Source: an uncultured Candidatus Saccharibacteria bacterium
Lineage (GTDB): Bacteria > Patescibacteriota > Saccharimonadia > Saccharimonadales > UBA10212
Direction of reading: 5' to 3'
Assembly (NCBI GenBank): GCA_965231085.1
Contig: OZ246413.1
Location: 411,234-475,233 of the forward strand
DNA: 64,000 nucleotides
Under the pieces are notes generated by a model that was given only the letters and a program-made list of their open reading frames with translations, was not told the DNA's origin and ran no database searches. Positions 42,479 through 43,931 of the stretch are shown piece after piece. The position numbers and the translations under genes are program-made. The stretch's first letter is position 1; every line of letters begins with the position of its first letter.

Positions 42479-43159
42479 TTATCCCCTAAGCTTAAGTACT
42501 TCTTGTTCGGTAAGGTCGCGCCACTGGCTGGGCCTTAAGCCCTTTAAGTCCAGCGGGCCATAATGACTGCGGTGCAGCTTAACAACCGGCAGGCTTACGG
42601 CGTCGAGCATGCGCTTAACCTGGTGGTTGCGGCCCTCATGAATAATAAGCTCTAGCCTATCATCGCTAAGTTGCCTAACCTTGGCCGGCGCCGTCTTACC
42701 ATCCTCTAGCAATACGCCATTCCTTAACACGTCAAGTTTATAATGGTCTATCACGCCCTCTACTGTTGCTACGTAAGTTTTATCTACCTCGAAGCTTGGG
42801 TGCATAAGTTTGTGAGCCAGATCCCCGTCGTTGGTAAGCAGCAGTGCGCCGGTTGTGTCAAAATCTAGTCGCCCTACCGGCACGACCCTCTCGGGTATTT
42901 TTACGTCATCAAGTATTGTTGGCCGATCTTCCGGATCCTTCAGGGTGGTAACACTTCGCTGTGGTTTATAAAAAAGTATATAGCGAAGTTTCTGGCGGCT
43001 AATATCCTTACCATCTAGTTTCACAATGTCGCCGTCTTCTACCTGCGTATTTAACTGGCCAGGCTTTCCATTTACCTCAACTCGGCCAGCTTTTATAATT
43101 TCGTCAGCTCCACGTCGTGAAGCTTTACCGGCTCGAGCTAGATAAGCATTTAGTCTCAT
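42479..43159 (-). CDS. Pseudouridine synthase, RsuA/RluB family
   Basis: N-terminal S4 domain (RLNAYLARAGKASRRGADEII) and catalytic motif VGRLDFDTTGALLLTNDG. Confidence 0.9.
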   Translation of the reverse strand: MRLNAYLARAGKASRRGADEIIKAGRVEVNGKPGQLNTQVEDGDIVKLDGKDISRQKLRYILFYKPQRSVTTLKDPEDRPTILDDVKIPERVVPVGRLDFDTTGALLLTNDGDLAHKLMHPSFEVDKTYVATVEGVIDHYKLDVLRNGVLLEDGKTAPAKVRQLSDDRLELIIHEGRNHQVKRMLDAVSLPVVKLHRSHYGPLDLKGLRPSQWRDLTEQEVLKLRG

Positions 43160-43200
43160 AAATATATTGTATAGGTTATCTAGGTTTTAATAAGTGTTAT

Positions 43201-43227
43201 GTGCGGCCCCCTTGCGGGGGCGCGCAC
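43201..43227 (-). terminator. GC-rich hairpin immediately after the high-GC ORF
   Basis: The minus strand reads GTGCG-C-GCCCCC-gcaa-GGGGGC-CGCAC: an 11-bp stem with a 1-nt bulge, beginning 7 nt after the TGA. No U-tail follows. Confidence 0.55.
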
Positions 43228-43233
43228 GGACGA

Positions 43234-43446
43234 TCAGGCCGGAGCGAGTACGAACCCACGCTCCTCGGCGGCGGGAGTGAGATTGCAGCAGGCGTCGAGG
43301 ACGCCGCAGTTGCCGAGCTCGGTCTTGAGGCGCTCGACGCGCAGTCTCAGCACCTCGTACCCGGCCTCGTTCTCGCTCATGGCCTTGAGACGATTGACGG
43401 CTTCCCGCCACTCGTCTATCTTGGCCTGAGTGGCCTCGTTGGGCAT
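43234..43446 (-). CDS. Small protein (70 aa) encoded in a compositionally foreign high-GC cassette
   Basis: Strong Shine-Dalgarno CCAGGAGGAAGGAGCGT-ATG. Hand count gives 139/213 G+C (65%), and 59 of 70 codons end in G or C. The protein MPNEATQAKIDEWREAVNRLKAMSENEAGYEVLRLRVERLKTELGNCGVLDACCNLTPAAEERGFVLAPA has a helical N-terminal two-thirds and a Cys-containing C-terminus. No family recognised. Confidence 0.6.
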   Translation of the reverse strand: MPNEATQAKIDEWREAVNRLKAMSENEAGYEVLRLRVERLKTELGNCGVLDACCNLTPAAEERGFVLAPA

Positions 43447-43468
43447 ACGCTCCTTCCTCCTGGTCGAA

Positions 43469-43499
43469 GTTGTACGGCTAACAGCACGAATACTGTCAA
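43469..43499 (-). promoter_or_regulatory. Candidate promoter at the edge of the high-GC cassette
   Basis: On the minus strand: TTGACA (43499-43494), 19-nt spacer, TACAAC (43474-43469). The spacer is longer than optimal. Confidence 0.3.
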
Positions 43500-43525
43500 G
43501 TACTGTTATATATTATAATATTATT

Positions 43526-43729
43526 CTAATTAGTCAATGCTAGATAGCTAAACGCTATGCCAAGTATAAAAAAGACTACCATGCCATGTATTTCGTATTC
43601 TGGTGCATCCCAAAAATGTAGGAAACTAGTGAACCAATTGTGCTTATACCCATATTTAATTTGCATATAATCTCGGATGATATGAATAAAACTTAATGCC
43701 GCGAGAATACCGTAGATAGTTTTGTGCAT
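43526..43729 (-). CDS. Small two-TM membrane protein (67 aa)
   Basis: The track ORF 43526..43777 runs into tRNA-Ala. The internal ATG at 43729 (MHKTIYGILAALSFIHII...) avoids the overlap. It has two hydrophobic helices. Confidence 0.5.
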   Translation of the reverse strand: MHKTIYGILAALSFIHIIRDYMQIKYGYKHNWFTSFLHFWDAPEYEIHGMVVFFILGIAFSYLALTN

Positions 43730-43737
43730 AAATCTTT

Positions 43738-43814
43738 TGGTGGAGCATAAGGGATTCGAACCCTTGACCTCATCCATGCCATGGATGCGCGCTAGCCAAC
43801 TGCGCTAATGCCCC
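43738..43814 (-). tRNA. tRNA-Ala (anticodon GGC)
   Basis: The minus strand reads GGGGCAT-TA-GCGC-AGTTGGCTA-GCGC-G-CATCC-ATGGCAT-GGATG-AGGTC-AAGGG-TTCGAAT-CCCTT-ATGCTCC-A-CCA. The G3:U70 identity pair is present. Confidence 0.9.
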
Positions 43815-43890
43815 ACGTCGGAATCGACGTGCCAGCTTCCGTAAAATTATACATAATTCTACTTACAGCTTCAGGTCGCTTCCTCCTTCT

Positions 43891-43931
43891 CAATTTTGTA
43901 AAGTACTGCACTGCGGAACTTCACAAAATTG
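43891..43931 (-). terminator. AT-rich hairpin between the DUF4396 gene and tRNA-Ala
   Basis: CAATTTTGTAAAGT (43891-43904) and ACTTCACAAAATTG (43918-43931) form a 14-bp stem with one mismatch. There is no clear U-run. Confidence 0.3.

Follow-up and report, generated by a model that had tools for sequence, protein, structure and literature searches.

Morons, exemplified by the HK97 gene 15 element, are pieces of extra DNA of deviant GC content that lie between genes adjacent in relatives, and they are horizontally spread, independent transcription units in which a promoter of their own is followed by a single small open reading frame (ORF) and then a stem-loop (PMC3594210). The Saccharibacteria DNA analysed here over its whole length of 64,000 nucleotides (the window) contains a unit on the minus strand at 43160–43537 that can be compared with these elements. 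We consider it probable, at roughly 60%, that these 378 bp are an autonomous, moron-like accessory-gene cassette that entered by horizontal transfer and whose insertion, within a hypervariable interval downstream of a tRNA-Ala gene, is confined to this lineage. The features of the locus are as follows.

43738–43814, minus strand: tRNA-Ala(GGC), called by ARAGORN and Rfam; upstream anchor of the hypervariable interval.
43526–43729, minus strand: gene of a conserved small membrane protein of 67 aa, start ATG at 43729, compared with relatives by tblastn; upstream flank.
43510–43537, minus strand: putative cassette promoter, with −35 box TTGACT (43537–43532), a 16-nt spacer and −10 box TAATAT (43515–43510).
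43462–43509, minus strand: predicted 5′ untranslated region, with a conserved AGTACTT just past the −10 box, a TTGACA and a small UUCG hairpin.
43450–43461, minus strand: Shine-Dalgarno sequence AGGAGGAAGGAG, read from the sequence, 3 nt 5′ of the ATG.
43234–43446, minus strand: ORF70, an orphan protein of 70 aa with coding periodicity and a homolog in the relative L084.
43201–43227, minus strand: GC-rich hairpin of 11 bp with a one-base bulge and a GCAA (GNRA) tetraloop, without a U-tract.
43160–43200, minus strand: AT-rich tail, AUAACACUUA past the hairpin and then the leader CCTATACAATATATTT adjoining the rluB ATG.
42479–43159, minus strand: rluB, encoding a 23S rRNA pseudouridine synthase (Pfam PseudoU_synth_2 and S4); downstream flank.
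43187–43411 and 43234–43446, minus strand, and 43199–43429 and 43201–43518, plus strand: the four overlapping ORFs of the GC-rich island.

Like a moron, the cassette lies between two genes, those of the membrane protein and RluB, that are adjacent in eight relatives and 366 nt apart here, and its composition departs from that of its neighbours (GC 0.66 vs 0.435; GC3 0.83 vs 0.40). A promoter consensus match, found in three cassettes, may provide a promoter of its own; the hairpin is strong, but it has no U-tract and the scan calls no terminator in it. The cassette differs in residing in a chromosomal housekeeping operon (tRNA-Ala, the membrane gene, rluB and cell-wall genes) instead of a prophage, and in having ends that are conserved across differing payloads, a property outside the definition of a moron; the term is used here as an analogy only. 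Integron cassettes are likewise small single-ORF units with an imperfect hairpin containing an extrahelical base and with variable payloads in one locus. However, the present cassette has a putative promoter of its own and lacks the R''/R' core sites (RYYYAAC/GTTRRRY) at the base of the stem, and the tetraloops, GNRA here and UNCG in the relative L084, point to a role at the level of RNA rather than of ssDNA. Furthermore, no integrase or recombinase, transposase or reverse-transcriptase domain occurs among the genes called within ±5 kb, although Pfam gave no match for two of these genes (317 and 299 aa). The missing pair of core sites, the putative promoter and the lack of a recombinase domain among these genes led to rejection of the integron attC model. 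With tRNA-linked islets and islands the cassette shares deviant, variable accessory DNA beside a tRNA gene, the content of which differs among close relatives, but it is split from tRNA-Ala by a conserved gene and is just 378 bp long. A tRNA-targeted island was discarded because the genes called nearby include no integrase domain and the window holds no direct repeat of the tRNA-Ala 3′ end, which occurs once even with 3 mismatches allowed. DGR target sites, comprising a variable region, a GC-rich IMH and a hairpin, are common in CPR bacteria. Like them, the cassette has a GC-rich hairpin, its loop 4 nt long, after a hyper-divergent coding segment in a CPR genome, but its divergence spans the whole ORF and is not adenine-specific, and a DGR variable region was rejected for want of a template repeat anywhere in the 64 kb (18 nt at best) and of a reverse-transcriptase domain among the genes called within ±5 kb.

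The surroundings of the cassette are those reported by the initial annotation, namely a pseudouridine synthase gene, a small membrane gene and a nearby tRNA-Ala. The rluB product is an RluB-type pseudouridine synthase (Pfam E = 9e-22) with its nearest relatives in Saccharibacteria/Saccharimonadales MAGs, in keeping with the Saccharibacteria-type genome supposed at the outset, and the membrane protein is 37–55% identical to its relatives by tblastn. The neighbourhood also includes genes for a DNA ligase, DUF4396, a hydrolase, a Mur ligase and Ddl, and no phage genes were seen within ±5 kb. In 8 of 8 relatives that have the membrane gene (L003, L004, L005, L008, L083, L084, L085 and L095, with RluB 64–88% identical to that of the window), it directly abuts or overlaps rluB, the rluB ATG overlapping the membrane-gene stop, so that the insertion is specific to the lineage of the window. 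The segment is an insertion relative to every relative examined. The membrane-gene ATG lies 9 nt past the CCA of tRNA-Ala, just as in distant relatives, and this junction looks ancestral. The cassette has no clear terminal repeats; a 9/10 AT-rich direct repeat (43162–43171 and 43508–43517), which may be due to chance, was judged unreliable as a target-site duplication.

The segment 43201–43480 is compositionally foreign. Its GC content is 0.661 compared with the window mean of 0.435 (z = 6.3), no other 280-bp interval of the stretch exceeds 0.56, and in a 120-bp scan of the 64 kb a value of at least 60% GC was reached outside the island at a single start position (42521, exactly 0.60). At either edge of the island, the shift in composition is abrupt and takes about 10 nt. 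The initial annotation had described an island of about 280 bp of foreign composition in AT-richer DNA, with four overlapping ORFs, and this description stands for the GC-rich core (43201–43480), but the inserted unit is larger (43160–43537). The counts given for ORF70 were also reproduced (G+C 139/213; G or C at the third position of 59 of the 70 sense codons), and its GC3 of 0.83 lies far above that of the 56 long ORFs serving as the host reference (0.40, sd 0.033, maximum 0.48). The GC1/2/3 of 0.68/0.45/0.83 with a period-3 chi-square p of 1e-5, the Shine-Dalgarno sequence and a homolog of similar length support the view that 43234–43446, presumably translated, is the coding frame, as first proposed. 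This composition fits a genome of about 60–65% GC, from which we infer a horizontal origin in a high-GC gene pool.

The helices predicted for ORF70 comprise residues 4–24 and 27–43; the C-terminal tail, with the motif EL..G(V/I)LDA...LT..A.E(R/K)G, is of low confidence, as is the AlphaFold2 single-sequence model overall (pLDDT 65.5). Three C-terminal Cys had been pointed out, and a modified peptide had been named among the possibilities. The Cys are present (C47, C53 and C54), but the equivalent residues of the L084 homolog, ORF79, are A, M and G, and the modified-peptide idea is weakened because the Cys are not conserved. A RiPP precursor with a Cys-rich core was rejected on this ground and in view of the housekeeping neighbours, among which there are no adjacent modifying enzymes. 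At a guess, ORF70 may be a small regulator or a conflict-related accessory protein.

Pfam and structure matching assigned ORF70 to no family and no fold; a fold search with the low-confidence model returned no match, and a PDB profile search with ORF70 and ORF79 gave nothing below E = 0.39. No PADLOC defence family matched ORF70, ORF79, ORF80 or ORF99, and scans of the collection with the three payload proteins and with the hairpin-plus-tail DNA pattern both yielded zero hits. Several candidate relatives were dropped. A ScpB remnant was considered when tblastn placed an ORF70 match within ScpB, encoded upstream of rluB in the actinomycete MAG L045 (E = 0.045, from a tiny database), but the other two matches, with comparable scores, lie in an unrelated protein rich in Cys, and Pfam found nothing. 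The match to P0002, a coiled-coil protein of eukaryotes (E = 5e-7 over six repeats), reflects coiled-coil composition and not homology. Residues 37–67 resemble one TALE-like repeat of about 33 aa (BurrH/Bat), but as a single unit without a tandem array, and the whole-sequence E of 1.2e-4 for BurrH is an artefact of summing over 11 near-identical repeats, the best single repeat having an i-Evalue of 690.

The two closest relatives, L083 and L084, each have a cassette that shares promoter and tail with the one described here but is located between tRNA-Ala and the membrane gene. The payload of the L084 cassette is ORF79, a 79-aa homolog of ORF70 (33–35% identity, pairwise E = 8e-6), and that of the L083 cassette is ORF80, an HTH protein unrelated to ORF70. 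ORF80 has sub-threshold matches to a prophage immunity repressor of M. abscessus (46.7% over 45 aa, database E = 0.06; pairwise 36% over 70 aa) and to PHROG transcriptional regulators (E = 0.014). The GC1/2/3 values of the two sister payloads, 0.62/0.38/0.85 and 0.58/0.44/0.79, follow a pattern like that of ORF70. The tail at 43160–43200 is homologous to the stretch from the hairpin to the membrane-gene ATG in L083 and L084; tail and leader are conserved as far as the start codon of the following gene, whichever it is. Between the window and L084, the cassette ends are about 71–73% identical, as counted from alignments, and the third codon positions of rluB 48%. The best reading of these sequence comparisons is that of a small cassette family with common AT-rich ends and differing GC-rich payloads, which has landed at two different sites in sister lineages.

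The putative promoter scored 9/12 matches in the promoter scan and is of sigma-70 type, and it is in register across the three cassettes (TTGACT-16-TAATAT here, TTGACA-16-TAAAAT in L084 and TTGATA-16-TAAAAT in L083). The initial annotation had instead drawn attention to a TTGACA upstream of ORF70. This motif exists at 43494–43499 on the minus strand, but it is probably not a promoter: the scan pairs it with no acceptable −10 box, and the L084 cassette does not preserve it. The conserved promoter would rather be TTGACT-16-TAATAT, which is predicted to be active. The Shine-Dalgarno sequence noted earlier is present, though spaced 3 nt and not 4 nt from the ATG, and has counterparts in the sister cassettes (GGAGG in L084 and GGGAG in L083). 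The hairpin reported 7 nt after the ORF70 stop, without a U-tail, was likewise found (dG −24.4 kcal/mol, z = −4.5). In L084, the hairpin has the same architecture and bulge position with a UUCG (UNCG) loop, and two of its pairs are changed on both sides with 100% of pairing retained; this covariation is statistically weak, being equalled in 135 of 500 shuffles in a family of only two or three members. The scan calls no intrinsic or canonical terminator in the unit, the hairpin at 43201–43227 included, and the hairpin is probably an mRNA 3′ stabiliser or a leaky terminator.

The most likely mode of action of the cassette can be put forward. Its own promoter would drive the expression of a 70-aa cytoplasmic helical-hairpin protein, and the hairpin, lacking a U-tract, would stabilise the 3′ end or terminate transcription only partly, leaving read-through to supply rluB and genes further downstream. 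The insertion may have broken a former translational coupling of rluB and the downstream genes to the membrane gene. The AT-rich promoter and tail are unlike high-GC donor DNA, suggesting that the unit is a mosaic. Furthermore, the only homolog of ORF70 belongs to a cassette of a sister Saccharibacteria lineage in which the AT-rich promoter and tail recur, and this argues that the unit is not raw donor DNA.

Cultured Saccharibacteria live on Actinobacteria and are naturally competent. Given that the source genome is that of a Saccharibacteria member and that the GC1/2/3 of ORF70 fits a gene of a genome of about 62–65% GC, the gene could be a very recent acquisition, straight from the actinobacterium that hosts the epibiont or from a phage of this host, and could act, still unameliorated, in the host interaction, as was suggested initially. 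This origin is possible but rather unlikely. The weak, sub-threshold matches of the sister payloads in Mycobacterium phages (the immunity repressor for ORF80 and gp68 of mycobacteriophage Miko for ORF79, database E = 0.4) speak for it, but high-GC queries tend toward matches in high-GC phages through composition alone, and it is our impression that Mycobacterium phages are apparently abundant in the phage collection searched. The Miko candidate was rejected, ORF70 itself not being alignable to gp68. Proteobacteria and other high-GC taxa match the composition equally well, and the sharing of the AT-rich promoter and tail with cassettes of other Saccharibacteria counts against the uptake of raw host DNA. 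ORF70 has no match among phages, plasmids, 5.8 billion protein clusters and 1.84 billion representatives, and beyond the sister Saccharibacteria homolog there is none in about 15 billion proteins, phages, plasmids, viral contigs and metagenome contigs; a 70-aa query is of low sensitivity, ORF79 itself (35% identical) having been missed by a protein search. The initial annotation had held that the lack of a homolog in any high-GC taxon would speak against its actinobacterial or host-phage origin, and the finding of none in high-GC taxa, phages or plasmids, with a query as short and insensitive as this, therefore counts against that claim. An actinobacterial origin is plausible in itself.

Alternatively, promoter and leader could form a resident expression site into which GC-rich payloads of ORF plus hairpin are swapped repeatedly, the shift in position then being a local rearrangement. 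Three lineages do have three different payloads, each flanked by the promoter and leader modules that they have in common, the compositional boundaries match the payload and not the whole unit, and the nucleotide identity of ORF70 to ORF79 (46%) is no higher than that to the unrelated ORF80 (47%), compared with about 71–73% at the ends. However, the ancestral appearance of the junction between tRNA-Ala and the membrane gene indicates that the unit from promoter to leader sits at a new site; in addition, no empty promoter-plus-leader site was seen in any relative, and the genes called nearby include no recombinase domain, making a resident site doubtful. In AT-richer genomes, an island of high GC often proves to be an RNA, and the ORF could be incidental to a structured non-coding RNA, given that all frames are open in high-GC DNA. 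The segment does fold better than shuffled sequences on both strands (z = −4.4 and −3.8), and the terminal hairpin is kept with compensatory changes, but such an RNA is improbable: only tRNAs passed the Rfam gathering threshold, and 43100–43600 gave nothing meaningful even at E ≤ 10. Period-3 GC is strong in one frame and recurs in both sister payloads, a Shine-Dalgarno sequence stands at the right distance in 3 of 3 cassettes, ORF70 and ORF79 are similar as proteins, the internal gaps in the alignment of window and L084 cassette DNA are multiples of three, and the body outside the hairpin is merely 46% identical in nucleotides. The sharp compositional edges would also suit an assembly chimera or a contaminating high-GC read, the main alternative named at the outset, but this is barely conceivable now that the junctions and flanks have been found identical in independently assembled contigs of 125.7 kb and 77.1 kb from two other runs (Logan assemblies SRR14271372 and SRR13076587; 100% identity over 10.2 kb and 5.5 kb). 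Moreover, the homologous, same-ended cassette of L084 comes from another project, and the cassette of the window provides the upstream gene with its stop codon and reaches precisely to the rluB ATG.

The genomes of CPR bacteria, Saccharibacteria included, are tiny and are thought rarely to gain genes, and the acquisition of host genes is poorly documented at single-gene resolution. Comparison of the filled site with the empty sites of relatives delimits a complete foreign mini-gene, as read from its sequence, within an operon of essential genes. It may be speculated, with considerable reserve, that this Saccharibacteria subclade harbours a new class of miniature mobile cassettes with conserved AT-rich promoter and leader ends and exchangeable payloads, each a small high-GC ORF with its tetraloop hairpin, capturing and expressing single genes of high-GC hosts or their phages. 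If this were true, there would be a cassette-capture route for gene flow from host to epibiont that does without an integron-type integrase. Payloads derived from host Actinobacteria or their phages would serve as markers of host range and as a handle on proteins of epibiont–host or epibiont–phage conflict; payloads of other origin would make the cassette an ordinary orphan islet. The promoter and hairpin modules could also be of use as expression parts in the genetics now being developed for Saccharibacteria.

The accessory-gene cassette favoured here also leaves a mark on the gene upstream. Its −35 box contributes to the last codons of the membrane gene and lies beside the stop (GCA TTG ACT AAT TAG), and the membrane protein ends in YLA|LTN* in the window and in YLAGRP*, YLAVKQ*, YLAFH* or YLAVQ* in relatives, the final three codons here being derived from the cassette.

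The compositional island described in the initial annotation proved real and extreme: the GC content of positions 43201–43480 was 66.1% against a window mean of 43.5% (z = 6.3), none of the 280-bp windows elsewhere in the 64 kb exceeded 56%, and at 120-bp resolution the 60% mark was reached from just one further window start (42521, exactly 0.60). Recounting gave the same four overlapping ORFs on the island and, for the minus-strand ORF at 43234–43446, the same 139/213 G+C and 59/70 sense codons ending in G or C. The other elements reported there were also located, as listed here with the cassette.

42479–43159, minus strand: rluB, encoding an RluB-type 23S rRNA pseudouridine synthase
43160–43537, minus strand: the 378-bp cassette
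43201–43227: hairpin without a U-tract (dG −24.4 kcal/mol)
43234–43446, minus strand: ORF70, 70 aa
43450–43461: Shine–Dalgarno sequence, with the ATG 3 nt further on
43499–43494: TTGACA
43738–43814, minus strand: tRNA-Ala(GGC)

The GC1/GC2/GC3 values of ORF70 were 0.68/0.45/0.83 (period-3 p = 1e-5, chi-square); GC3 of the 56 long ORFs of the window was 0.40 ± 0.033 and never exceeded 0.48. We consider it fairly likely, with a probability of about 0.6, that a real orphan gene cassette, specific to this lineage and acquired horizontally, occupies a hypervariable spot in the Saccharibacteria genome.

An assembly chimera had been named as the main alternative. The ORF70 protein is recorded in NCBI and in Logan assemblies, and two Logan contigs were 100% identical to the window with both junctions included, one of 125.7 kb (SRR14271372) across 10.2 kb and one of 77.1 kb (SRR13076587) across 5.5 kb; these identical junctions contradict a chimera. 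The closest RluB relatives of the window were Saccharibacteria/Saccharimonadales MAGs. Eight related loci (L003, L004, L005, L008, L083, L084, L085, and L095) carried the small membrane-protein gene, and their RluB proteins were 64%–88% identical to that of the window. The membrane-gene stop abutted or overlapped the rluB ATG in 8/8; in the window the gap was 366 nt. Beyond the conserved ‘YLA’, the membrane protein ended in LTN* in the window versus GRP*, VKQ*, FH*, and VQ* in relatives. The abutting genes of all eight relatives, together with this C-terminal switch, argue for a lineage-specific insertion younger than the split from the relative with 88% RluB identity.

The inserted unit extends beyond the GC island and has relatives. 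The closest relatives, L083 (RluB 88%) and L084 (84%), also carried small high-GC3 ORFs (GC1/2/3 of 0.58/0.44/0.79 and 0.62/0.38/0.85, respectively), located between tRNA-Ala and the membrane gene. An AT-rich predicted promoter and an AT-rich tail/leader were common to all three, and a hairpin to the window and L084.

Predicted AT-rich promoters, aligned in register
Window: TTGACT-16-TAATAT-ATAACAGTACTT
L084: TTGACA-16-TAAAAT-ATAGTAGTACTT
L083: TTGATA-16-TAAAAT

In the window the −35 box encodes the final codons of the membrane gene; in L083 it holds the stop of a 99-aa ORF. The tail/leader, with the pattern (C/G)C(T)(A/T)TACA(A/C)TATA..T, directly adjoins the ATG of the next gene, namely rluB in the window but the membrane gene in the other two loci. 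The hairpin is built from five C-G pairs and one G-C pair, then a bulged C and a lower stem. Its loop is GCAA in the window and UUCG in L084, the two classic stable tetraloops of RNA, and A(U/A)AACACU comes after the hairpin. Two lower-stem pairs are changed on both sides between the window and L084 (C-G to U-A and U-A to C-G); this covariation, drawn from two sequences only and matched by 135/500 shuffles, is suggestive but statistically weak. The cassette is one member of a very small family whose AT-rich ends are conserved and whose payloads are GC-rich.

ORF70 and the L084 payload, ORF79, are homologous, with 33%–35% identity (pairwise E = 8e-6) and a common motif, EL..G(V/I)LDA...LT..A.E(K/R)G; the three Cys of ORF70, mentioned in the initial annotation, are not conserved in ORF79. 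The L083 payload, ORF80 (435–677, 80 aa, high GC), is unrelated to ORF70 and looks like an HTH-like protein, with weak matches to PHROG transcriptional regulators (E = 0.014) and to a Mycobacterium abscessus prophage immunity repressor (database E = 0.06, with 36% over 70 aa in the pairwise alignment). Identity in the promoter and hairpin modules was approximately 71%–73% (counted from alignments), compared to only 48% for rluB third codon positions in the same genomes and 46% for ORF70/ORF79 nucleotides (47% for ORF70 and the unrelated ORF80); the cassette ends, unlike the payload, are thus conserved well above the near-saturated third-position level. A GC3 of 0.83–0.85 could not have survived such in situ divergence under the AT-biased regime of the host; hence the payloads came separately from a high-GC gene pool, or else their GC content is actively maintained.

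Searches with ORF70 and an ORF70/ORF79 profile against 5.8 billion clusters found nothing beyond ORF79, as did those of JGI metagenome contigs, IMG/VR, and phage and plasmid collections (DNA and protein level). ORF70 had no relatives in Pfam, PHROGs, NCBIfam, or PADLOC and no match in PDB by sequence, profile, and fold, and the cassette had none in Rfam. Using phmmer against 1.84 billion representatives, ORF70 returned a coiled-coil artefact only; because ORF79 itself was missed, a query of 70 aa cannot detect homologs at 35% identity in a database of this size. The actinobacterial-host origin proposed initially fits the composition, on which it is plausible, but gained no homolog from any collection searched. 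A likeness of ORF70 residues 37–67, in the C-terminal third, to one 33-aa BurrH TALE-like repeat (L.A...L.PA..ERGF) was judged to be chance; its E = 1.2e-4 is a sum over 11 repeats, each insignificant alone.

The cassette (43537–43160, minus strand) may be an autonomous transcription unit comprising the promoter, a predicted 5′ UTR of about 60 nt (judged by where the −10 box lies), the Shine–Dalgarno sequence, ORF70, the hairpin, and the tail. AlphaFold2 without an alignment gave ORF70 helices at 4–24 and 27–43 and a disordered tail (pLDDT 65.5); the protein is probably cytoplasmic, because inspection found no N-terminal hydrophobic segment. Since the hairpin has no U-tract and a scan of the cassette detected no intrinsic terminator, it may act as a transcript stabiliser or partial terminator. 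Transcription from the promoter may continue into rluB and the co-directional hydrolase, Mur-ligase, and Ddl genes, and the insertion would have ended the translational coupling of rluB and downstream genes to the membrane gene. Called genes within ±5 kb contained no integrase, transposase, or reverse-transcriptase domains, and neither a tRNA-derived att repeat nor a template repeat was found in the window. Candidate routes are illegitimate recombination after DNA uptake and recombination between strains.

Phage morons are defined as additional DNA separating genes that lie side by side in relatives, with deviant GC and their own promoter and stem-loop (PMC3594210). The anatomy of the cassette fits this definition (inserted DNA, deviant GC, predicted promoter, stem-loop). 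However, unlike morons, it lies outside any prophage, so that it would be moron-like in its working and not a moron; by analogy, it may be regarded as a moron-like accessory islet. The cassette showed no defining features of an integron cassette, tRNA-integrated island, DGR target, RiPP precursor, TALE-like repeat, or known RNA. These cassettes would be of much greater interest with payloads shown to stem from host organisms, or with conserved ends that prove to serve in capture or mobility.

RluB proteins on four contigs of approximately 69% GC labelled Gaiellaceae or Actinomycetes (L010–L013) were 59%–63% identical to that of the window; the best Firmicutes RluB was clearly further (≤51%). 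This suggests either that rluB crossed between the two phyla, Saccharibacteria and Actinomycetota, or that they have a deep relationship in common. No ORF70-like gene lay upstream of rluB in these contigs.

The interval between tRNA-Ala and rluB (window 43160–43737; L003–L009, L083–L089, and L092–L095) was hypervariable across Saccharibacteria, and several assemblies end precisely in it. Depending on the lineage, it holds the small membrane gene alone, 69–79-aa ORFs of a ‘DGG..DGFIV.PFDP’ family (L086, L088, L093, and L094), a cupin-like gene (L007), a hairpin alone (L089), or high-GC cassettes. The related locus L006 (621–1054) has another insert of approximately 400 nt at the same membrane-gene/rluB junction, with normal GC and an ORF of approximately 100 aa, flanked by a duplicated stretch of approximately 37 nt of the rluB 5′ end (AATGAGGCTTAATG.TTTTTGGCG.CGGCCGGG); it is a second, independent insertion at this site, with target duplication. 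In the window, the mechanical membrane-protein ORF (43526–43777) overlaps tRNA-Ala; homolog comparison places the true start at ATG 43729 (MHKTIY...), 9 nt past the tRNA CCA end. Immediately 5′ of tRNA-Ala, a non-coding block of approximately 80 nt (AAGGAGGAAGCGACCTGAAGCTGTAAGT...TTACGGAAGCTGGCACGTCGATTCCGACG; 43815–43895, minus strand), also present in L007 (765–845) and L093 (25–108), is kept among Saccharibacteria with RluB identity of only approximately 67%–73%. It had no Rfam match at E ≤ 1 and forms a predicted stem-loop with some compensatory changes; possible identities are a leader or processing element of the tRNA and a previously undescribed small RNA.
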